Origin: a virus
Taxonomy: Duplodnaviria; Heunggongvirae; Uroviricota; Caudoviricetes
Direction: 5' to 3' (one strand)
Virus record (IMG/VR): IMGVR_UViG_2778261297_000003
DNA length: 45,246 bases
Shown in pieces: positions 1 to 37,619 of this stretch. The position numbers and the translations under genes are program-made. How positions within the stretch are numbered: position 1 is the first letter of the stretch; every line of letters starts with the position of its first letter. Under the pieces are notes generated by a model. It had not been told where the DNA came from, made no database searches, and was given only the letters and a program-made list of their open reading frames with translations.

Positions 1-321
1 CTACATTACAGGCGATTTATCGTCTTTAACTTGGTTAAGTGTATGTGTAAGAACGCCGTGTACCGTTACGTCATTCAGAGCTTCCCCTTCTATCGCTTCA
101 CCATCTTCAGTGATCAGCGCGTGGCCCATTAGCTTCACGAACTGGTTTCTCCCGTCCATGCTAACCAGCAGCGTATCCCCTCCTTCTGGCTTCAGACTGA
201 CGTTAATAACGGCCCAGCCGCATGAAGTTTCAATAACCCGGCAGTTGTTATCTACACCGCAGATAACATCTATCGTCATGCGCTGCTCCTGGTAATCCAT
301 GGCTGGCGATGGAAATCCCAT
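1..321 (-). CDS. UmuD'-like protein (S24 LexA/UmuD fold, lacks N-terminal cleavable arm, probably non-catalytic)
   Basis: 106-aa ORF. N-terminus MGFPSPAMDYQEQR matches UmuD starting at the Cys24/Gly25 RecA-mediated cleavage site (UmuD sequence recalled from memory). The position of the GDSM serine nucleophile reads SCGW; a lysine in FVKL is retained. RBS GGGGAGGG lies 7 nt upstream of the ATG. Confidence 0.5.
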   Translation of the reverse strand: MGFPSPAMDYQEQRMTIDVICGVDNNCRVIETSCGWAVINVSLKPEGGDTLLVSMDGRNQFVKLMGHALITEDGEAIEGEALNDVTVHGVLTHTLNQVKDDKSPVM

Positions 322-407
322 TAGAAAACCCTCCCCATGTTTCGCAGGATCCAGTATCGATTCTCACTTCCGTTTGTCGTCTTATCGGCGAAGTCCGGCT
401 GGTACCG

Positions 408-563
408 CTAGATCCATGAATTTGCATCCGCCTGGCTGAAATGCCAGTGCCTCTCCTGCAGTTCAGCGATAAATTTGTCTGTATGCAGGCAGAGATAGCC
501 CTTCGGGTTTTGCTGTATGACCGCAACAAAAGCAGCACGAATATCCGGTTGACGAGGCATGTG
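408..563 (-). CDS. small hypothetical protein (51 aa), SOS-box proximal
   Basis: ATG at 561-563 preceded by a GAGGG RBS; the LexA-box-like palindrome lies about 25 bp upstream. The longer 78-aa track ORF is not supported upstream of this ATG. Confidence 0.4.
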   Translation of the reverse strand, partial: HMPRQPDIRAAFVAVIQQNPKGYLCLHTDKFIAELQERHWHFSQADANSWI

Positions 564-660: not shown

Positions 661-927
661 ATGTTTGTTGAACTCGTTTATGACAAGCGTAATGTTGAGG
701 GGCTCGAGGGGGCCAGAGAGATCATACTGGCCGAGCTGACGAAGCGGGTGCACCAGATTTTCCCTGATGCCGAAGTGAAGGTGAAGCCGATGCAGGCGAA
801 CGGCTTGAATAGCGATGCCAGCAAAAGCGATCGTGAAAAACTGAACCACATGCTGGAGGAAATGTTTGAAGAATCCGATATGTGGTTGGTTTCTGAGTTC
901 CCGACTGTTCGCCAAGCCGGGCTGTAA
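661..927 (+). CDS. dinI: DinI-family DNA-damage-inducible protein
   Basis: 88-aa ORF MFVELVYDKRNVEGL...EEMFEESDMWLVSE, typical of prophage DinI homologues; LexA box about 60 bp upstream. Confidence 0.85.
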   Translation: MFVELVYDKRNVEGLEGAREIILAELTKRVHQIFPDAEVKVKPMQANGLNSDASKSDREKLNHMLEEMFEESDMWLVSEFPTVRQAGL

Positions 928-970
928 AATGGTTCAGGCTGCCAGCTTCAATATTCACTGGCGGCCTGCA

Positions 971-1531
971 TTATGTCTTACCACTACCTACCGGAAATTT
1001 TCGGTAGAGTGTTGAAACCCCTACGTCGTAAATTATTGCCACACGCTGGCGAGATTCCCCTGCTGAGATCAATCTCCCTGCCTGCGCCCATTGTTCATCC
1101 GTTAATTTGGGCCTGCGACCGCCGAACCGCCCTTTTGCTCGCGCAGCTGCTAAACCCGCCCGGGTGCGTTCAACAATGAGCTCTCTTTCCATTTCTGCCA
1201 AAGCCCCCATAACATGAAAGAAGAATCGGCCCATCGGCGTAGACGTGTCTATGCTGTCGGTCAGGCTGCGAAAATTAATGCCCCGCTCTCGCAGCTCCTC
1301 CACAAGAACGACAAGATGCCGCATGCTTCTACCGAGCCGATCGAGTTTCCAGACCACCAGCGTGTCTCCCTCCGACAAGATACGGAGTACCTTTTTGAGC
1401 CCCGGCCTCTCCGATGTCTTTCCGCTTATCTTATCTTCAAAAATCAGTTCACATTCTGCGCTATCGAGCGCATTTCTCTGTAATGCGGTGTTCTGGTCAT
1501 TTGTTGACACTCTCACGTAACCAATAAGCAT
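971..1531 (-). CDS. serine recombinase, DNA invertase (Hin/Gin/Pin/Cin family)
   Basis: 186 aa from MLIGYVRVSTNDQN (catalytic Ser motif) with a C-terminal HTH (VGVSTLYRKF); near-colinear with Hin/Gin. RBS AGGGG upstream of ATG at 1529-1531. Confidence 0.9.
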   Translation of the reverse strand: MLIGYVRVSTNDQNTALQRNALDSAECELIFEDKISGKTSERPGLKKVLRILSEGDTLVVWKLDRLGRSMRHLVVLVEELRERGINFRSLTDSIDTSTPMGRFFFHVMGALAEMERELIVERTRAGLAAARAKGRFGGRRPKLTDEQWAQAGRLISAGESRQRVAIIYDVGVSTLYRKFPVGSGKT

Positions 1532-1585
1532 TGTTTTATCCCCTGCAAAAAGCAGAAAGCATGCCACTAGTGAGCAGAATGGTCA

Positions 1586-1611
1586 TTATCAAAAACGTTG
1601 GTTTGGGAGAA
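1586..1611. repeat. inversion crossover site, left (hix/gix-like) TTATCAAAAACGTTGGTTTGGGAGAA
   Basis: 26-bp site resembling hix/gix half-sites, 55 bp upstream of the invertase start; an inverted copy lies inside the tail-fibre gene at 3431-3456. Confidence 0.7.
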
Positions 1612-1932
1612 GCGGCGAAAAGGAATGTGGGGACTGGGGCGAATCAGATACCAGACATGTCAGCTTATTCATCAGGATCTGGCTGGCAAAAATTGCCTGA
1701 TGGTTCAATTGAACAGTGGGGAAGAATTAATTTCCCGACTAACGCCGCGGCGGTATCTACAAATGTGACTTTCCCCATTCCTTTTACGCAGGAGCCAGAC
1801 GTAGTGATTGTATATGACGGCGGTTTTGGTGGTGGGAATATGTGGGGCGCAACTAACTGGACGCGAACAGGATTTGTTGCGCATTGTAACTATGGATTTG
1901 AAGGTGGAGCTTTCTTTGCGAAAGGGCGTTAA
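1612..1932 (+). CDS. alternative tail-fibre C-terminal cassette (currently promoterless/silent)
   Basis: Reading frame continues from the crossover site (..KNVGLGEAAK..) to a stop at 1932; would be fused to the constant fibre N-terminus after inversion. The track ORF start at 1531 is not a real start. Confidence 0.55.
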   Translation, partial: AAKRNVGTGANQIPDMSAYSSGSGWQKLPDGSIEQWGRINFPTNAAAVSTNVTFPIPFTQEPDVVIVYDGGFGGGNMWGATNWTRTGFVAHCNYGFEGGAFFAKGR

Positions 1933-1934
1933 TT

Positions 1935-2375
1935 ATGAAATATTTATATATTGATAATCTGGCGTACCCTTACGCCCTACAGTCTGTTTACGCTGCAAAA
2001 GGGCAATGGCCAGAAGGAAAAGGCGTAGACATAGACGAAGCTATTTTCAGGGAATATTTCCATGACACGCCGCCCGAAGGTAAGCGCAGAATTACCGCAG
2101 GCGACGGAATGCCAGCTTGGGCAGATGTTCCTCCACCAACACGTGAAGAACAAATTGCATCAGCCGAAACTAAAAAGCAGCAATTGATTAACCAGGCCAA
2201 CGAATACATAAACAGTAAACAATGGCCAGGTAAAGCATCAATTGGTCGTCTGAAAGGTGAGGAACTGGCGCAATATAATTTGTGGCTGGATTATCTGGAC
2301 GCACTGGAACTGGTCGATACTTCCGGTGCGCCAGATATTGAATGGTCTACGCCTCCGGCAGTTCAGGCCAGATGA
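1935..2375 (+). CDS. tail fibre assembly protein (alternative copy, Tfa')
   Basis: 146 aa; C-terminal motif YNLWLDYLDALELVDTSGAPDIEW parallels the other Tfa (LNAVLDYIDAVTATDTSTAPDVIW). Confidence 0.75.
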   Translation: MKYLYIDNLAYPYALQSVYAAKGQWPEGKGVDIDEAIFREYFHDTPPEGKRRITAGDGMPAWADVPPPTREEQIASAETKKQQLINQANEYINSKQWPGKASIGRLKGEELAQYNLWLDYLDALELVDTSGAPDIEWSTPPAVQAR

Positions 2376-2949
2376 CGTCCGGCGCTGTGCTGGTATCTGT
2401 TGCCGTCACCGCGTCAATGTAATCCAGCACAGCGTTAAGTCGGGTGTTTTCTGGCTGCGTCAGCTTCCGCCCGGCCTGTAATTTCAGTTGAATCAGACTG
2501 ATGGAAGCCATTGCTGCATTAATCAGTGACTGGCGCTGTGCTTCTGCCGCGTCTAGTGCGGCGCTATGCTGTGCCTCGGTATCCGTCACCCATTTCTCAC
2601 CATCCCATTTATCGTATGGCGTTAATGGGGCGATAGTGGTTGTATTTTCAGGGTAATCACCCGGAACTGTGATTTCTTTGGTATCTCCCGTTTCGGTACT
2701 ATAGACAACTTCACCGCGATGGTCTGGCACATATTCCCATGAATTTAAATCTACAGAGCGACAGATTGCATAACCAGCTTTATGTGTACCTGGTGCATCC
2801 AGACAGGAACATGCCGGGATACCGACGCCGACAGCGAGATATTCAGTTGATGTAGAAATATATTCCCGCGTTTCGCCATCATAGTTATGTACGATGATTT
2901 CCCCATCATTTAAAGCGTAACCGTCTTTTCCCAAAATAGCCTGTTCCAT
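2347..2949 (-). CDS. tail fibre assembly protein (Tfa, active orientation)
   Basis: 200-aa ORF directly downstream of the fibre gene with the conserved Tfa C-terminal motif. Confidence 0.8.
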   Translation of the reverse strand: MEQAILGKDGYALNDGEIIVHNYDGETREYISTSTEYLAVGVGIPACSCLDAPGTHKAGYAICRSVDLNSWEYVPDHRGEVVYSTETGDTKEITVPGDYPENTTTIAPLTPYDKWDGEKWVTDTEAQHSAALDAAEAQRQSLINAAMASISLIQLKLQAGRKLTQPENTRLNAVLDYIDAVTATDTSTAPDVIWPELPEA

Positions 2950-3729
2950 TTATGCAGCCCTCACAATGTAGTTAAATGCAATGTTTCGCGGGCTACCATC
3001 ACCGGCGCCGGAACTGACATGATTGGTTCTATCCATTCGTTTACTGTCATTTGTTGTTCCACTCCCATCCTTCCACGAATACAATAACCCGCCATCGCCA
3101 ATGCTCAACTGCACCGCAAATACGGATGAACCGGATGAATAAACATCTCCAGCCATGAGTGGGTTCCCTGTCCATCCATGCATTTCATGGTTATGTTCAA
3201 GGATAGATGCTGCCTGACTTGAAAGCAGCAGTCTCGCGGAATCAACACCTCGCCCATCATCCCACCCGCGAATAAACTCACCGCGCAAATCCGGTAATTT
3301 TAACTTTGGGTAAGCCTTTGCCAGTTTTGGGTACTCTTCGGCAGAAAAAGGTGCACCGTTGCATTTCAGCCAGCCTGTTGGTGGTGTGGCTGAAGGCCAC
3401 GGAACAGGCACACCAACGGGTAACGCTGAGCCTTCTCCCAAACCAAGGTTTGTGAGAGCCGTAGAAATCGCCGCTGCACCATCTGATTTGATATCGGCAA
3501 ATGGGTTTGCACGGCTCAGTGTGAGTTTTTGAATGGCTTTTAAAACCTGAGTCATATCGTTAATGTCGAGCGCCAATCCTGCTGACTCTACGATATGCGC
3601 TAACTCTTCCTGCATGGCATTAAACGCTGCTGCCCGCAGCCTCGTTGCGGCAATACCACCAGCAACACTTCCATCAGTATATTTGCCATCCTGCGTTGCA
3701 GTGGCTTCGACTTGCCCGATTCGGAGCAT
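2950..3729 (-). CDS. tail fibre protein (constant N-terminus plus invertible C-terminus)
   Basis: 259-aa ORF; the crossover site lies about 93 codons in; GAGGAT RBS upstream of the ATG at 3727-3729. Confidence 0.8.
   Translation of the reverse strand: MLRIGQVEATATQDGKYTDGSVAGGIAATRLRAAAFNAMQEELAHIVESAGLALDINDMTQVLKAIQKLTLSRANPFADIKSDGAAAISTALTNLGLGEGSALPVGVPVPWPSATPPTGWLKCNGAPFSAEEYPKLAKAYPKLKLPDLRGEFIRGWDDGRGVDSARLLLSSQAASILEHNHEMHGWTGNPLMAGDVYSSGSSVFAVQLSIGDGGLLYSWKDGSGTTNDSKRMDRTNHVSSGAGDGSPRNIAFNYIVRAA
3431..3456. repeat. inversion crossover site, right (inverted copy)
   Basis: Reverse complement CTCACAAACCTTGGTTTGGGAGAAGG shares the 19-bp core AAC(N)TTGGTTTGGGAGAAG with the left site; located at the constant/variable junction of the tail-fibre ORF (encodes ...NLGLGEG...). 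Confidence 0.7.
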
Positions 3730-3780
3730 AGTTAATCCTCACTTAGTGTTAAGCGATAAAATCAGAGGGGGAAATATCAG

Positions 3781-4374
3781 TTATGAATAATTGAAAATGA
3801 TGTTCAGATGGGATGGGGCAATTTTGTTGATTGAACACTCCAGTTGTTTATTGCCCCACGATGCGAGCGGATCTCCGCAGTAGGACGCGCCAGCAAGCGA
3901 ATACTTGATCGTTGTTTGTGGCGCATTTATCCGCCAGGTAAATGGCCACTCGTCACCGTTAAGCGCATCACCGCATACTGACATGCCACTCATAGCGGGC
4001 CGGAACTGTGTGATAGTGATGGTATAACCAAGAGCTGCAGCCACCCGGATGTAATAATCGCGGTTCAGGCCGCCGGTGCTGATTAACTTTGCCACCACGG
4101 CGCGCTGGCGATCGCTGACGCCACCGGATTCACCAATCGCACAATCATCTGGTAACCCCAGAGAGCTTTCCCATTCTGACAACATTACCGTCGCTGTAGG
4201 GGGAAAAGCACCAGTAATCAGGCTTTGCGCATCGTTGTCAGAACGCTGAAACGCGCTGCCCAGTGCCCGTAATACCGCAGCCTGTACCGTTTTTTGCGAT
4301 CTGGGCCACGCCCTGCCCGTCGGCAGCAACGCGCCAAGCGCACCGGCATAATCATTTTTTGAAAAGAGGCTCAT
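3781..4374 (-). CDS. tail protein (Mu gp48-like, DUF2313-type)
   Basis: 197-aa ORF in the Mu-like order between baseplate J-like protein and tail fibre. Confidence 0.65.
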   Translation of the reverse strand: MSLFSKNDYAGALGALLPTGRAWPRSQKTVQAAVLRALGSAFQRSDNDAQSLITGAFPPTATVMLSEWESSLGLPDDCAIGESGGVSDRQRAVVAKLISTGGLNRDYYIRVAAALGYTITITQFRPAMSGMSVCGDALNGDEWPFTWRINAPQTTIKYSLAGASYCGDPLASWGNKQLECSINKIAPSHLNIIFNYS

Positions 4375-25311: not shown

Positions 25312-26364
25312 TTATTCCCCTGTTAACGCCCTTATTTCCCCCACCGTCTGGCTAAACCTGTCCTTCTCGAGTTCAACGCCGATAGCCTGGCGGCCAAGTT
25401 CCAGCGCGATTTTCACGGTCGAACCGGACCCCATAAAGAAATCAGCCACCACATCACCAGGCTTACTGCTGGCGTTGATGATCTGCCGCAACATGTCAGC
25501 GGGTTTTTCGCATGGGTGTTTACCTGGGTAAAACTGAACGGGTTTATGTGTCCAGACGTCGGTATAAGGAACGGATACGGAAACAGAGAAATGCCGCCGA
25601 AGCGATTTGTACTCTTCGAGCAGCTCTGAATACTTGCGATTTAACGAATGCCACATAGCCACCAGCTGGTGGTGTGGTGTTGCCAGTTCGCCGTTCTGGT
25701 GCTTTTCGATGGCTACCTGCGTGAAAAGGGACTGAAGCTTCCGGTAGTCTGATTCATTCGGTAATTGCCACTGGCTACCGCTGAACCAGTGAGACACCAT
25801 GTTCTTCTTTCCAGTCGCATCGGCTATTTGTTTTGAGGTTATGCCAAGCGCTTCACGTGCATCCCGGAAATAAGAAATTAGGGGAGTCATTACATGCTGC
25901 TTCAGCTCGCTTCCCTTCTCAGCGTACCCGTCGCTCTTTGGTTTATACGGCCCCTGGTAATGCTCAGCGAACAGGATGCGCTCTGTTGCAGGGAAGTAAG
26001 AGCGCAGGCTCTCTTTATTACAGCCATTCCAGCGGCCCGACGGTTTAGCCCAGATGATGTGGTTCAGGACGTTGAACCGCTCACGCATCATGATCTCAAT
26101 GTCTGCCGCCAGACGGTGACCTGAGAAAAGATAAAGACTGCCGGCAGGTTTAAGCACTCGCCAGAATTGTGCGAGGCACATATCAAGCCAGCGAAGATAA
26201 TCCTCATCCCCTTTCCATTGATTGTCCCAGCCGTTGGGTTTCACTTTGAAGTACGGCGGATCCGTGACTATCAGGTCAATGAAGTTATCAGGGAGAGTTG
26301 CGATGTATTGCAGGCTATCAGCGTTGACTAACTCAACACTGTTTATATTTACAGTATTTTTCAT
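25312..26364 (-). CDS. DNA methyltransferase, beta-class (N6-adenine or N4-cytosine; DPPY motif)
   Basis: 350 aa; motif IV VTDPPY near the N-terminus and motif I FFMGSGST near the C-terminus. Confidence 0.8.
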   Translation of the reverse strand: MKNTVNINSVELVNADSLQYIATLPDNFIDLIVTDPPYFKVKPNGWDNQWKGDEDYLRWLDMCLAQFWRVLKPAGSLYLFSGHRLAADIEIMMRERFNVLNHIIWAKPSGRWNGCNKESLRSYFPATERILFAEHYQGPYKPKSDGYAEKGSELKQHVMTPLISYFRDAREALGITSKQIADATGKKNMVSHWFSGSQWQLPNESDYRKLQSLFTQVAIEKHQNGELATPHHQLVAMWHSLNRKYSELLEEYKSLRRHFSVSVSVPYTDVWTHKPVQFYPGKHPCEKPADMLRQIINASSKPGDVVADFFMGSGSTVKIALELGRQAIGVELEKDRFSQTVGEIRALTGE

Positions 26365-30613: not shown

Positions 30614-32551
30614 TCAGGCGGCTGCACCCGCCTTTTGATTTGCACATAATTCAGGAAGATTTGCTTCTACCAGCGCACGAGCGAACGGCGGCGGTACTGC
30701 GTTACCACAGCGCGCTACCTGCTTGTCTTTGGCGTAACGATTGCCGCGATAGTCCTGATCGATAACGTAGCCGTCAGGGAAGCCCTGCGCCTTATAAAGC
30801 TCATGCGGTTGCAGCATGCGCATTCCGATATCGACGATCTGGTACTTAACCCCCTCGATCGTCACCAGCCATTCATCCTCGCTATCACCGCAGTAGGTTT
30901 CGAGGAATGTCCGGACCTCGCCAACGTGCTGGCCACCAGCGGTAATCGTCGGCATAGGTGTATCCATGGTCTGACCGTCGCTGCAGGTTCCGCGCAGCTT
31001 CACCAGGTGCGACGCAACTACCGCGTGGTGATCAACAGTAGTGACTGAGTGGGCAGGCTCATCCATACCAACACCCGGCCCCGTGTAATTCCCACCATAG
31101 TGCTTCGCCAGGAACGCGCTCACCGTTGCAAACTTATTACCACCAGCAGTGACCGTGCCGAGCGGGTTATTCAGTTGAAGAACACGCGGTTCTTGCCCTG
31201 GGCGTTCGCCGTACCCCATCTGGATCAGTGTTGGAGTTACCAGCTGCGACTTACCGCCACCACCTGCAGTAATCGTCGCACTCGGTTCGTCAGCCCTGTG
31301 CCCAACACTGGCTCCAAACTGGCGGGCGATGACCGGCGCAACCACGCACGCGCGGGACTGCTTGAGGATTGTATGAGCGGGTTTATCCAGCGGGCGCGGC
31401 TTTGCCTGGTACTCACTGCCGCCATTGCCAGCCAGGAACGGTGTCAGGGCGGCCTCAACTACGCCAAGCGCATGCCCATTCCCGCCCGGGCGCGCCGACG
31501 TACCAGCGGTGACAGTTGGTACCGGCTCGGTCACTGGCTGCCCGGTGGCCCCGGTGCGGAATTTAGTAAGATGCGGTACCGCCAGTGCGTAGCCATGCTT
31601 TTTAGTGATGGTCTGCAATGGCTCTAACAACGATTGCCCGCGGAAACAGTCATAACCTCCTTTCGTCGTGGTGTGGTTACACTTCACGATGAAAGGTGAT
31701 GCGCTTTCGATAACAAAGCGCTGGATGCCGCGCGCGATACGTTTGAGCGTATTTTCCGCCAGCGGCTTTTTGCGGTCGAAGATGGACCGGGCCGGGATAT
31801 TCCAGTCAATGCACTCCGCCGCGGTACGCCATGGCGCCAGCTTGCCGCTTTGTACTTCCAGTGATTTTGGATCCCCATGAGTCGCTTCAGGCCAATGAAT
31901 CTTGCGGCCGTCACAGCGCATGACCATGAAGAAACGCTTTCTGATCGTCGGCGCGCCGTAGTCACATGCGCGCAGCTCCCGATAATCAACCTCATAACCA
32001 AGCCCGGCGATCAGCTGTTGCGCCTGCTGGCCGTGCGGCTCAATGGCAAGGAATTCACAAACCTCAGCCAGCGCAGGGTGATTCGCCGCGATCCCCGTCG
32101 ACAGCATGCCGACAAATGCCTCGAATGTTTCGCCAGCACGCTCAGGATCTGGGCGTAATTCTTCATCCAGCAGCGGGCCCCATGTCTTAAACTCTTCGAC
32201 GTTCTCCAGCATCATGACGCGGGGACGTACTGCCAGCGCCCAGCGCAGGACAATCCACGCCAGCCCGCGAATCTCTTTCTTAACCGGCTTAGCGCCCTTC
32301 GCCTTGGAAAAGTGGCGGCAGTCAGGGCTAAACCAGGCCAGACCGACAGGTTTACCGCTGGTGGCTGCGCTTGGGTCAACGTCAAACACCGACTCGCAAT
32401 AATGCAGCGTGTCAGGGTGATTCGTCTTATGCATCGCAATAGCGTTTTCGTCGTGGTTGATAGCGATATCCACGCTACGCCCGATCGCCAGTTCAATGCC
32501 GGTACTCGCGCCGCCGCCACCAGCAAAGTTATCAACGATAATTTCACGCAT
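30614..32551 (-). CDS. DNA (cytosine-5)-methyltransferase, large, with repeated TRD-like modules
   Basis: About 645 aa from MREIIVDNFAGGGGAS (motif I); SPDC..FS.AKG (motif IV-like), MLENV (motif VI), RKRFFMV (motif VIII), CGNAV (motif X); four TxTAGG-containing repeats between motifs VIII and X. Confidence 0.8.
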   Translation of the reverse strand: MREIIVDNFAGGGGASTGIELAIGRSVDIAINHDENAIAMHKTNHPDTLHYCESVFDVDPSAATSGKPVGLAWFSPDCRHFSKAKGAKPVKKEIRGLAWIVLRWALAVRPRVMMLENVEEFKTWGPLLDEELRPDPERAGETFEAFVGMLSTGIAANHPALAEVCEFLAIEPHGQQAQQLIAGLGYEVDYRELRACDYGAPTIRKRFFMVMRCDGRKIHWPEATHGDPKSLEVQSGKLAPWRTAAECIDWNIPARSIFDRKKPLAENTLKRIARGIQRFVIESASPFIVKCNHTTTKGGYDCFRGQSLLEPLQTITKKHGYALAVPHLTKFRTGATGQPVTEPVPTVTAGTSARPGGNGHALGVVEAALTPFLAGNGGSEYQAKPRPLDKPAHTILKQSRACVVAPVIARQFGASVGHRADEPSATITAGGGGKSQLVTPTLIQMGYGERPGQEPRVLQLNNPLGTVTAGGNKFATVSAFLAKHYGGNYTGPGVGMDEPAHSVTTVDHHAVVASHLVKLRGTCSDGQTMDTPMPTITAGGQHVGEVRTFLETYCGDSEDEWLVTIEGVKYQIVDIGMRMLQPHELYKAQGFPDGYVIDQDYRGNRYAKDKQVARCGNAVPPPFARALVEANLPELCANQKAGAAA

Positions 32552-33878
32552 TGACGGCCCCCTGCATGCTGTTGAAGAGACCACCAGCGGTCGTGATAAT
32601 TTCACTCGTCGGCATACGTTCGAGCCACAGCTGGTTGATATTGGCTTTCAGCTTGTTCTGCTGCGAAACAGGTAGAGCGTCAGCCCCTTCAATCTGGTTA
32701 AACACCAGTCCAACCTCAAGAGGCCAAACGCGCGATTCGTTTAACGCCTTGTCCTTTGATTCCTGCGTCTCACGGACATGGGCGCGGATCCCCCGAATAT
32801 TTGACCATTTGGCTTTATCCAGGCTTTCCATGGTCGCGATGAATTCACTGTGGTTAATGCCGTATTCTTTCGCAGACTCAACGGCAACCGTGCGTAACCG
32901 CTCTGACATGTCTTGTTTCACGTCATCGCTATCAAAGGGCAATGTTTCCAGCCATGCATTAACACCCACCAGGATGCTCTCGCTGATCAGCTTTTTCGCT
33001 CTGTCGATCGTCAGCGGTGAAACATTGGTAAATTCAGGGTTTTCCAGAGAGTCGGCAGCCCAGGTATGACCAAACTTTGACTCGCTGAAGGTGTACTCGT
33101 CTTTCTTGCCGAACGCCGCGACAACACAGGCCCAAGCCTCTACACCGCTGGTTTCCAGAATGGCTTTTTGGGTTAATGGCAGTTCTGCCTCTGATTTCTC
33201 CGGCACTACCTCAGCGTCCAGCTCCGGCGCCGCATCAGTTTGCGTTCTTCCCACGGCAAATTGGGCCAGCGACATCGCAGCACGGCCTTTGGCCTCCAGG
33301 TCGGTGCGGTTGATGTAACTGAAACGCTCACCCCGCCATGTTTTGTCGAAGACCACGATAGCGCCAGCAAAAAATGCGCTGGTGGGCTGCTGCTTTTCGT
33401 CTTTCGGCACGAACCATGTAGGAAGATCGAAACCAATTCGGCCACGGATGAATGTGACGTGATCTGCCTCTTCCGGCCACCACGTCTCACTCGTCGCAGA
33501 CTTAATGAGAAAAACGTACCGTCCACCCTTTTCTCGCATTGCCATAGCGTGGTTAATGATGTGGGTCATTCCGGTAACGGCCTGCTTGTCGTGGTACTGA
33601 GAGCGGCTGTAAGGCGGGTTGCCAAACCCGGCACCACCGAGTTCTGCCAGACGCTCTGACCAATCCTGCGTCAGGGCATTATTTTCAGCCGTGTACCAGG
33701 TTGGGCACTTCGCGTTGCTGTCGTCGGCAAAAAGGTCCAACACCAGAGGGCCGAACATCGCATTGATACCCCAAAACAACAGATCCGGAGTGCGCCATTG
33801 ATCGCCGACCTCTTTCAACTCATGGGCTGGTTTTGAACGCAGTTCAGCCAGCGCGCGGCAGTATTTGCTTTCAATCAT
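32544..33878 (-). CDS. phage Dam-type N6-adenine methyltransferase (NPPY) fused to a 270-aa C-terminal domain of unknown function
   Basis: N-terminal region WRTPDLLF...GFGNPPYS matches phage Dam family; C-terminal extension has no recognised motifs. Confidence 0.7.
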   Translation of the reverse strand: MIESKYCRALAELRSKPAHELKEVGDQWRTPDLLFWGINAMFGPLVLDLFADDSNAKCPTWYTAENNALTQDWSERLAELGGAGFGNPPYSRSQYHDKQAVTGMTHIINHAMAMREKGGRYVFLIKSATSETWWPEEADHVTFIRGRIGFDLPTWFVPKDEKQQPTSAFFAGAIVVFDKTWRGERFSYINRTDLEAKGRAAMSLAQFAVGRTQTDAAPELDAEVVPEKSEAELPLTQKAILETSGVEAWACVVAAFGKKDEYTFSESKFGHTWAADSLENPEFTNVSPLTIDRAKKLISESILVGVNAWLETLPFDSDDVKQDMSERLRTVAVESAKEYGINHSEFIATMESLDKAKWSNIRGIRAHVRETQESKDKALNESRVWPLEVGLVFNQIEGADALPVSQQNKLKANINQLWLERMPTSEIITTAGGLFNSMQGAVNA

Positions 33879-36661: not shown

Positions 36662-36690
36662 TCCCTTCCCGCTCTTCCTCTAAGCATCAA

Positions 36691-36742
36691 GCTAAGTTTA
36701 GTTTGATGTTTCACTTGACCAACAAACTAAGTTAAGTTAGAT
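36691..36742. promoter_or_regulatory. OL-like operator cluster downstream of cI
   Basis: GCTAAGTTTAGTTTGAT (36691-36707) and AACTAAGTTAAGTTAGAT (36725-36742) repeat the OR half-site motif CTAAG/CTTAG. Confidence 0.5.
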
Positions 36743-36862
36743 TTTTTCTGTCGACACCAAACCACCGCGCCTGATGTGGTTAAAAGCAGGCCAAAGCATT
36801 ATGAAGTGATCCCTGTTCTGGCTGTTCACTTCCCATGAGGGTGACAGCCAGCTTTTTAAGGG

Positions 36863-36942
36863 CACAACGTGAAAGCGCACTCCATCAACTATCGGTTGTG
36901 GATGACAGGTAAGTAAACAGGCGGAGTGCGCTTCCAGTTGTG
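36863..36942 (+). repeat. structured element A (about 19-bp stem, 39-nt loop) in the untranslated leader
   Basis: 5' arm CACAAC-G-TGAAAGCGCACTCC pairs with 3' arm GGAGTGCGCTTCC-A-GTTGTG. Confidence 0.5.
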
Positions 36943-37205
36943 ATGAATTGCAGCCCTTTGAGGCAACCAGAAGATAAGCACCTGGCGTCACAGCACTATT
37001 GAACATGGCGAAAGCCGAAAGACTTGAAGGCGGTTTTCTCAGGTTGCGCGCTAAAGAATAGCGGGGAGAACCTGGGGCGGAGAGCAAACCCCGCGATGCA
37101 GGACTTGAAATACCTCACAGACCAATAAGCCGTCTGGCAGCGTAACTGCCCTTTACATCAGCCCCGGCGAGGTGGCGCCGCCGGACCGGGGCTGGTGAAT
37201 CGCAA

Positions 37206-37281
37206 CACAACATGAAAGCGCATTCCTCTTTTCACTGATGGGGATCGGTTTGTTACCTGGCGGAGTGCGCTTCCAGTTGTG
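37206..37281 (+). repeat. structured element B (second copy of element A with a G-U-compatible substitution)
   Basis: Same arms as element A (CACAAC-A-TGAAAGCGCATTCC ... GGAGTGCGCTTCC-A-GTTGTG); a C to T change yields a G.U wobble; loop differs but keeps ATCGGTT and a ..GGC junction. Confidence 0.5.
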
Positions 37282-37619
37282 GTAATGCGGCTCTGCGCAC
37301 GTGACGAGGCCAACAAGTTTTTATTTCAACTTTTGAAATGAATACGTTTCTTGTGGTGTAGCGTCGCCGGTTCTGGCCGGTCCGGCAGGTGGAGGCACCA
37401 CCGCCACAACAACATCATTGCTGTGTGTAGTCTTTGCCCATCACATCGGTGGGCACCTTTTTTACACAAGAGACAAGGGCATCACCGGGCGACGGGCTCA
37501 TTCCCCAATCCACCCGGGCAAGAGGATAGCGATTGCAGTCGCCGACAAATGCAGGTGCCCTTCTCTGTTGTGTATGGAGAAAGTTCGGCGGTGGCAGCCG
37601 CCATAACGAGGGTAAAACC

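Follow-up and report, generated by a model that had tools for sequence, protein, structure and literature searches.

The window analysed here, a stretch of 45,246 bp, is a complete E. coli prophage of about 45 kb, apparently intact and like an intact relative of e14. Its gene content combines lambdoid regulation and head genes with a Mu-like contractile tail, and, in contrast to e14, nothing is missing among its genes for head, tail, lysis and regulation; a tRNA-Pro adjoins the prophage. When the structural module was used as the query in megablast, deposited phage genomes returned almost no matches, which leaves the backbone without a named phage as its relative. The features described below are collected in Table 1. 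A DNA invertase gene, flanked by a DinI gene and a possible UmuD-like gene, adjoins an invertible segment that ends within the tail-fibre gene S. This gene comes after a baseplate gene similar to Mu gp48 and YmfQ, and Mu-like baseplate genes gp45-48 are found upstream of the fibre module.

Table 1. Position of the invertase gene, crossover sites, fibre genes and predicted enhancer in the 45,246-bp window.
Feature	Position	Strand	Description	Basis
DNA invertase	971-1531	minus	186 aa; Pin/Gin-type small serine recombinase	Pfam and homology
Predicted Fis-dependent recombinational enhancer	1447-1510	minus	in the 5' coding region of the invertase gene	sequence constraint
Distal block of predicted enhancer	1447-1461		gene nt +71 to +85	
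Proximal block of predicted enhancer	1496-1510		gene nt +22 to +36	
ORF of silent tip with its own ATG	1579-1932	plus	ATG at 1579, outside the segment	CDS in RefSeq
Invertase-proximal crossover site	1586-1611		pix/gix-like 26-mer; centre TT at 1598-1599; TTATCAAAAACG TT GGTTTGGGAGAA	
Invertible segment	1598-3446		1847 bp, centre to centre	homology breakpoints
Silent fibre tip Sv', variable part	1599-1932	plus	Gp53-like_C	Pfam PF21882, E=3.6e-10
Silent chaperone Tfa' for Sv'	1935-2375	plus	146 aa	Pfam Caudo_TAP, E=1e-29
Expressed tail-fibre assembly chaperone	2347-2949	minus	200 aa; TfaE type	Pfam Caudo_TAP, E=5.7e-31
Tail-fibre gene S	2950-3729	minus	259 aa; expressed	Pfam Collar (tail collar domain), E=9.1e-15
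Current fibre variable part Sv	2950-3446	minus	tail collar domain	
Fibre-gene crossover site	3433-3458		Sc/Sv junction; centre AA at 3445-3446; TTCTCCCAAACC AA GGTTTGTGAGAG; encodes TNLGLGE	
Fibre constant part Sc	3447-3729	minus	outside the segment	

The fibre module consists of one constant part, Sc, and two tips, each with its own chaperone, placed in opposite orientations inside the segment so that both fusions are in frame, as in the S/U-S'/U' layout of Mu. The two tips are different folds according to Pfam (Collar versus Gp53-like_C), and the two convergent chaperone genes overlap by 29 bp. With respect to e14, identity is 51% between Sv and StfE and 48% between Sc and the N-terminus of StfP, while the expressed chaperone shows 86.5% identity to TfaE; identity to the other e14 pair is 68% between Tfa' and TfaP, in the C-terminal half, and only 30% between the gp53-like tip and the C-terminus of StfP. 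Searches against NCBIfam gave no matches for the fibre or chaperone genes. The ORF that starts at its own ATG next to the invertase gene now spans 1579-1932, and after inversion it would consist of the leader and the collar tip.

The invertase contains the Pfam domains Resolvase (E=3.6e-50) and HTH_7 (E=1.9e-14), matches the crystal structure of Gin (3UJ3) over residues 1-181 (E=3.7e-87), and is 88% identical to PinE and 76% identical to Gin. The catalytic residues Y5, R7, S9, D64, R65 and R68 are present and, like H106, are the same as in Gin and PinE. The sequence-only reading had described a serine invertase in a switch of the Gin/Hin type; the family assignment holds, with Pin of e14, and not Gin or Hin, as the nearest relative. 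In NCBIfam it matched only large serine recombinases, far below the cutoff, and no family call was obtained. Alignment to the Hin DBD chain 1HCR places Q150, R153 and L154 in register with Q151, R154 and L155 of Hin (a Q-x-x-R-L motif), the residues named as contacts with Fis and the enhancer (PMC3798978). Among the positions conserved in at least 95% of 60 relatives, 127 of 128 are also found here. The only unusual residue is G26E (GGA to GAA), which is private to this lineage, Gly being present in all 60 close relatives; the changed base falls in the middle of the predicted distal Fis block. A simple scan for sigma-70 promoters and terminators between 850 and 3900, in which counts were at the level of shuffled sequences, did not reveal a usable sigma-70-like promoter for the invertase gene.

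Two crossover sites delimit the segment, in inverted orientation and with complementary central dinucleotides (TT and AA). They belong to an inverted repeat (1589-1612 and 3432-3455, 22 of 24 positions complementary) that is the best inverted pair between 900 and 3900. The 19-mer core, with up to three mismatches, occurs exactly twice in the 45,246 bp, against 0.03 expected, and none of 100 shuffles gave two occurrences. Scoring with the half-site of the family (TTNTCNNAAACC, counted twice, threshold at least 15/20) returned these two sites only, with 17/20 each, and nothing in 20 shuffles, while the same score recovered the gix sites of Mu at the annotated boundaries of the G segment, as well as the e14 sites. 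Since the window contains only two sites, a multi-site system of the Min or shufflon-like kind was rejected. The outer half of the invertase-proximal site, CGTTTTTGATAA, matches the hix/gix half-site, GGTTTTTGATAA. The centre of this site is 67.5 bp from the ATG of the invertase gene, which is the modal value (38 of 51 related loci), and this distance, a segment of 1.8-1.9 kb and TT/AA centres are the typical geometry of those 51 loci. The other site is located at codons ~93-98 of the fibre gene, at the junction between its constant and variable parts, and holds an exact 16-mer, CCTTCTCCCAAACCAA, that is the repeat of the e14 P segment. That repeat (TTGGTTTGGGAGAAGG / CCTTCTCCCAAACCAA) has been reported to be inverted in vivo by PinE and PinQ (PMC12529663). 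Homology to relatives with the other orientation or another backbone stops at ~1583-1589 and ~3446-3451 of the window.

These results bear out what had been proposed from the letters alone, with a slight correction to one coordinate. The 1.85-kb segment next to the serine invertase gene is there, with 1847 bp between the site centres, and so is the pair of inverted 26-bp hix/gix-like sites, of which the one at 1586-1611 had been placed correctly and the one given as 3431-3456 was two base pairs out of register, its correct position being 3433-3458. As had also been claimed, one of the sites, the right one, coincides with the boundary between Sc and Sv in the fibre gene.

Inversion of the segment in silico produces an in-frame fibre of 205 aa, with the 146-aa chaperone starting 2 nt later. 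This model is identical at 204 of 205 positions to a real CDS of strain AREA_C483, whose tail module (Sc and baseplate) is 98.6% identical to that of the window and whose segment lies the other way round; Sv' is 96.5% identical to the C-terminus of the fibre expressed there. In addition, two isogenic P2-like prophages, of strains E23 and Ec15103, have a module with 90% identity to the present one that faces opposite ways in the two: the flanks are 100% identical over 4460 and 4026 nt, the segment of 1852 bp is 99.95% identical and inverted, and the exchange took place within the site core. The exchange of fibre tip and chaperone for the silent plus-strand cassette, which the sequence-only reading had anticipated, is seen in relatives, in which both orientations are common (the split is 22 to 14 among viral loci and 12 to 6 among E. 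coli genomes with coverage of at least 80%). The exact prophage is present in three assemblies (NZ_CM174221.1, NZ_CM172609.1 and NZ_CM169492.1) in one orientation only, although two of them are probably the same strain, so that this says little either way. The chromosome record of EC09 is broken exactly at the crossover point (3446|3447); this is ambiguous and might stem from a sequenced culture in which both orientations were present. No matches in either orientation were found in viral contigs scanned with the exact flipped and unflipped 38-mers of the left junction, nor in metagenome and species-genome contigs scanned with an orientation-neutral 36-mer; the lineage is absent from these viral, metagenome and genome collections, and the junction scans are therefore uninformative on switching.

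It had also been suggested that a Fis-binding enhancer be sought in the 5' part of the invertase gene, and a candidate was indeed located there. In a set of 72-74 unique invertase genes, invariant third-codon positions cluster only at codons 9-12 and 25-26. The distal of these two blocks, which is also conserved in e14 and Mu, fits the Fis consensus GNNYRNNWNNYRNNC; the proximal one does not fit the strict 15-mer consensus, its support being its conservation. The centres of the blocks are ~48-49 bp apart, and that of the proximal block is 95.5 bp from the centre of the left site, while in the Hin enhancer the centres of the Fis sites are separated by 47 bp and lie ~100 bp from hixL (PMC3798978). 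This match with Hin in spacing and distance, along with the two blocks of invariant synonymous positions, leads us to predict that the region may function as a Fis-dependent enhancer.

Altogether, the locus is very probably a site-specific inversion switch, of the same type as Pin in e14 and Gin in Mu, by which this apparently intact prophage of E. coli sets its host range; the original observation is confirmed and its interpretation supported. The invertase would bind as dimers at the two inverted 26-bp sites, and host Fis bound to the enhancer would bring both together in an invertasome on supercoiled DNA, after which cleavage at the central AA/TT dinucleotides and a 180-degree rotation of subunits would invert the 1847-bp segment. 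The promoter and ribosome-binding site of the fibre gene and its first ~98 codons (Sc) lie outside the segment, and would hence be used in either orientation. In the present one, Sc is fused to the collar-domain tip, followed by the TfaE-type chaperone, and in the inverted one it would continue in frame into the gp53-like tip, with the 146-aa chaperone behind it, so that virions induced from a population of lysogens would carry one of two receptor-binding tips. We infer that the present copy currently switches, that Fis is required for it and that each tip recognises a receptor of its own.

Other explanations were considered. It is scarcely credible that no recombination system exists here and that the repeat exists simply because two convergent fibre gene fragments both encode the conserved NLGLGE motif, next to an unrelated recombinase, e.g. 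a resolvase. The repeat does fall in coding sequence and both copies encode the same peptide, but the left copy is upstream of any fibre constant region, at the distance from the invertase ATG that is kept in most related loci, and the breakpoints in module homology coincide with the sites. The same core has been inverted experimentally in e14 (PMC12529663), and identity between the recombinase and proven invertases is 76-88%. The difference between the isogenic prophages of E23 and Ec15103, limited to an inversion exactly at these sites, refutes this explanation for practical purposes. A second one would be that of a fossil or locked switch, with a Pin-type layout in which this copy, fixed on the collar-type tip, inverts never or very rarely, and in which G26E, or its G-to-A change in the distal enhancer block, would impair the invertase or its activation by Fis. 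Such a situation, which we regard as unlikely, would be consistent with the uniqueness of G26E among the 60 close relatives, with the location of the changed base in one of the two DNA blocks under the strongest constraint within the invertase gene, and with the single orientation in the three assemblies. On the other hand, position 26 is variable among 80 species-level relatives (G41, N24, H7, D4, E2, K1, S1), 39 of which have a residue other than Gly, so that G26E was down-weighted as an inactivating change; the Hin-like invertase of L003 has Asn there. Moreover, with A in place of G the 15-mer gains A/T content at its centre, a feature that favours Fis binding, and it continues to fit the strict Fis consensus. 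The remaining conserved residues are intact, as are the two sites and the two silent genes, and the break in the EC09 record could mean mixed orientations.

The switch might also have its role in the lysogen, instead of or besides determining the host range of virions: a free chimeric fibre protein would block adsorption of other phages, as a phase-variable defence. Inversion puts a fibre C-terminus behind a short leader beside the invertase gene (here the ORF at 1579-1932, leader plus gp53-like tip). There is a precedent in e14, where inversion of the P segment by PinQ or PinE creates StfE2, which blocks adsorption of T2 (PMC12529663), and the equivalent ORF of the window has its own ATG and is a CDS in RefSeq. 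Nevertheless, this role seems improbable in the present case. The gp53-like tip shares so little identity with the C-terminus of StfP (30%) that the T2 result is not transferable, the simple sigma-70 scan between 850 and 3900 found no promoter-like site for the ORF, and the classical role in virion host range is available to a prophage with complete head, tail, lysis and regulation genes, unlike e14. A combination, for which we see a rather slim chance, would have the switch acting both in the lysogen and in virions, with a free receptor-binding fragment from the own-ATG ORF acting against superinfection and the G26E/distal-enhancer substitution shifting the rate or bias of inversion.

The host-range switch proposed here is of a kind already known, and the present copy is an ordinary further example that raises no new mechanistic question. 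Its closest known counterpart is e14 of E. coli K-12 (pinE, stfP-tfaP / tfaE-stfE), with the same gene order of a ymfQ-like baseplate gene, fibre, overlapping convergent chaperones (29 bp in both), silent tip and invertase. Besides the identities of invertase, TfaE and collar tip given above, the 16-bp site core is identical and the segment is of similar size (1847 bp, compared with a reported 1797 bp in e14). The differences are that e14 is a 15-kb remnant, compared with the full prophage of ~45 kb beside tRNA-Pro; that the second tip and chaperone are another allele here; that the orientation in the window is opposite to that of the K-12 reference, the collar tip being the one expressed; and that mcrA is absent, DinI and possible UmuD-like genes flanking the invertase instead.

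As in the G segment of Mu, the invertase gene is outside the segment and adjoins one site, the constant part of the fibre is also outside and two pairs of tip and chaperone are inside; the site peptide is NLGLGE here and NLGLQE in Mu, and gp45-48-like baseplate genes are upstream in both. However, the G segment is of ~3 kb, with far longer tips than those of the short fibre described here (259 or 205 aa), the centre of gix is GA/TC instead of AA/TT, and Mu is a transposable phage, whereas the rest of the present prophage is lambdoid. The Hin/H-segment system of Salmonella shares the recombinase family, the 26-bp site design with an AA centre, the Q-x-x-R-L Fis-contact motif and, as predicted here, the enhancer geometry, with two Fis sites ~48 bp apart and ~100 bp from the nearest site; unlike here, hin is inside its segment, a promoter is moved rather than coding 3' ends being swapped, and the output is the type of flagellin. 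Fis-dependent serine invertases also swap tail-fibre C-termini and chaperones in the P1 C segment (Cin) and in p15B (Min), the latter having six sites and many permutations, compared with the two sites of the window.

Beyond annotation, the importance of this switch is little. It explains inversions of 1.85 kb, or breaks at the same point, among the assemblies of related strains, and it points to an e14-like phage that is intact, possibly inducible and equipped with two receptor-binding tips, and that could be used to study the past of the defective e14. Fibre gene calls in this region depend on the orientation of the segment. In RefSeq, the genes of the module are named only "recombinase family protein", "phage tail protein" and "gp53-like domain-containing protein".

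The region holding the invertase and fibre genes (971-3729) is a canonical Pin/Gin-type tail-fibre inversion switch, a system of a well-known kind. Its parts were identified from an ORF map combined with Pfam, and are listed in the table together with the accessory genes at one end of the prophage. The serine invertase that the sequence-only reading had placed beside a 1.85-kb segment was confirmed as such, with 88% identity to PinE and 76% to Gin, and the segment next to it measures 1847 bp. The Gin crystal structure aligned to the invertase over residues 1-181 (E=3.7e-87), and the counterparts of Hin Q151, R154 and L155, said to be unique to invertases and in contact with Fis (PMC3798978), are Q150, R153 and L154.

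Components of the inversion switch and accessory genes of the prophage
Feature	Position	Strand	Domains and remarks
106-aa ORF	1-321	-	GFPSPA..DY motif
Pseudogene	~321-560	-	Internal stop; adjoins the 106-aa ORF
DinI-family gene	661-927	+	
Invertase (186 aa)	971-1531	-	Resolvase + HTH_7
Silent fibre tip	1599-1932	+	Gp53-like C-terminal fragment, promoterless
Silent chaperone (146 aa)	1935-2375	+	Caudo_TAP
Chaperone (200 aa)	2347-2949	-	Caudo_TAP
Fibre gene (259 aa)	2950-3729	-	Tail collar domain; directly after gp48/YmfQ gene

Concerning the inverted 26-bp sites, the left one stood as proposed (1586-1611), while the right one, previously put at 3431-3456, was off by 2 bp and in register lies at 3433-3458. 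The best inverted repeat in 900-3900 is formed by 1589-1612 and 3432-3455, with 22/24 positions complementary, and the central dinucleotides, TT (1598-1599) and AA (3445-3446), are identical when read in inverted orientation, which is a requirement of inversion. Only these two sites were returned in the 45 kb by a search with the 19-nt core and up to three mismatches (0.03 expected). The same two were found in the window with a half-site score derived from the family consensus, which gave none in 20 shuffles and also recovered both e14 sites and the Mu gix sites, the latter falling precisely on the annotated boundaries of the G segment. The core of the sites is the same as the 16-bp repeat in the e14 P segment (TTGGTTTGGGAGAAGG / CCTTCTCCCAAACCAA), a segment whose inversion by PinE and PinQ has been shown by sequencing and qPCR (PMC12529663). 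The inner half-site and centre encode ..NLGLGE.. in both fibre reading frames; the corresponding motif at gix in Mu S and S' is NLGLQE. Among 51 related viral loci with two sites, the distance from site centre to ATG is 67.5 bp in 38, as in the window, the segment measures 1.8-1.9 kb in most, and TT/AA centres are present in 45.

The proposal that inversion would swap the fibre C-terminus and its chaperone was upheld by an in silico flip of 1598-3446, in which the constant part joins the gp53-like tip in frame to give a 205-aa fibre, the 146-aa chaperone gene starting 2 nt after the fibre stop codon (stop 1930-1932, ATG 1935). This fibre is encoded, with 204/205 identity, by E. coli AREA_C483, whose constant part and baseplate region are 98.6% identical to those of the window and whose segment lies in the opposite orientation. 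The P2-like prophages of strains E23 and Ec15103, with a module ~90% identical to that of the window, have identical flanks (4460 and 4026 nt without mismatch, same protein accessions) around a 1852-bp segment that is 99.95% identical and inverted; the alignment overlap places the exchange inside the site core, outer half-sites remaining with the flanks and inner contexts being swapped. Of 80 viral loci, 22 have the collar/TfaE cassette at the expressed position, 14 at the silent position and 3 at both. In complete E. coli genomes, matches covering at least 80% of the 2.9-kb query followed the window orientation in 12 cases and the flipped model in 6.

According to the sequence-only reading, a working switch would be refuted if only one orientation were ever observed and the invertase carried inactivating changes. 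All three assemblies with this exact prophage show the window orientation, and exact-junction scans of other collections returned no match. The invertase was compared with 60 close relatives, and of the 128 positions conserved there to 95% or more it deviates at just one (G26E). The change (GGA to GAA at 1455; codon 26, 1454-1456, minus strand) is also present in a nearly identical genome and is private to this prophage lineage, with Gly in 60/60 close relatives. Since position 26 is variable across 80 species-level relatives (G41, N24, H7, D4, E2, K1, S1), G26E is probably tolerated. Judged by every sequence criterion, the switch is predicted to be intact.

A Fis enhancer, for which the sequence-only reading had suggested looking in the 5' part of the invertase gene, is predicted there on good indirect evidence. 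A set of 72-74 unique invertase genes, with nucleotide identities of 73-97%, had its lowest relative synonymous entropy at codons 1-15 and 21-30. Only codons 9-12 and codons 25-26 form clusters whose third positions are invariant to at least 97%, and they mark two fully conserved DNA blocks: TGTCAACAAATGACC, located at +24..+38, and GCAGGATG, located at +73..+80. In the window, e14 and Mu alike, the distal block agrees with the Fis 15-mer GNNYRNNWNNYRNNC; the proximal block gave no fit to the strict Fis consensus. Block centres are ~48-49 bp apart and the proximal one is 95.5 bp from the left site centre, a spacing like that of Hin, where the two Fis sites have 47 bp between centres and are located ~100 bp from hixL (PMC3798978). 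The G26E base change sits in the centre of the conserved distal block and raises its A/T content.

The circular chromosome record of EC09 (NZ_CM169492.1), which has the same prophage, is linearised exactly at 3446|3447, the crossover point at the centre of the right site. An assembly break is suggested, for which there are two possible causes. A culture with both orientations would be expected to give reads that diverge at the crossover point, and a module that recurs in other prophages of that genome would have the same effect at its boundary.

At their 3' ends the convergent chaperone genes share 29 bp (2347-2375), exactly as tfaP and tfaE do in e14, and both products terminate in a ...DTS.APD(I/V).WP..P motif, read from opposite strands. 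Over 900-3800 the window and its two nearest genomes show only three differences (2210, 2269 and 2346). All lie inside 137 bp towards the 3' end of the silent chaperone gene, the 29-bp overlap included, in what looks like a small gene-conversion patch from the tfa of another prophage. Identity to TfaE is 86.5% for the expressed chaperone, to StfE 51% for the expressed tip and to the StfP N-terminus 48% for the constant part. The segment is also found, with 97.8% identity, in a P2-like backbone, and the fact that homology stops at the sites indicates that the cassette pair is exchanged as a module. In AREA_C483 (locus L002, 4930-5478) the same segment (98.6%), with its collar tip silent, and an identical fibre constant part adjoin an invertase only 55% identical to that of the window and an outer half-site that differs (CCTTTTTTATAA), so that invertase genes are evidently exchanged independently of the cassettes on which they act. 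The window backbone has its closest relative in a 43.9-kb IMG/VR contig (region 2427-5561), with nucleotide identities of 99% in ymfQ, 96% in the constant part and 97% in the invertase; the cassette pair between its two sites differs from that of the window, the sole match being the silent chaperone (73%).

The window, which shares 99.9% identity with E. coli chromosome NZ_CM174221.1 (ST536, O21:H9), spans the whole prophage, bounded by tRNA-Pro/yejM and yejO. Lambdoid regulation (cI/LexA-like repressor, Cro, Q antiterminator), a lambda/HK97-like head module, lysis genes and an integrase are combined with a Mu-like contractile tail with baseplate genes gp44-48 (YmfQ family), an architecture of which e14 in K-12 is a 15-kb remnant. 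No close relative of the 20-kb head and tail module (3800-24000) was found among 50,697 deposited phage genomes, the best match being a Serratia phage with 5% coverage at 79%; this type of prophage is unrepresented among sequenced phages.

Accessory genes occupy 1-927, the end adjoining tRNA-Pro, where the 106-aa ORF looks UmuD/S24-peptidase-like by eye. The RefSeq annotation of the identical prophage includes three DNA methyltransferase genes (~25312-26364, 30614-32551 and 32544-33878, minus strand), one generic, one cytosine-specific (645 aa) and one N6-adenine, so that the anti-restriction load is unusually heavy. An unannotated gap of ~0.9 kb (36662-37540), without annotated gene or convincing ORF, lies downstream of the cI/LexA-like repressor gene, and its whole sequence is present in only 3/5426 E. 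coli genomes. At 37327-37464 (plus strand) it gives a full-length, sub-threshold match to Rfam RprA (41.5 bits, gathering score 70, E=0.0005-0.002), in which the 3' half, AUUGCUGUGUGUAGUCUUUGCCC..GGGC followed by a U-run, nearly coincides with the RprA consensus. This stretch may represent an RprA-like sRNA carried by the prophage, or what is left of one.
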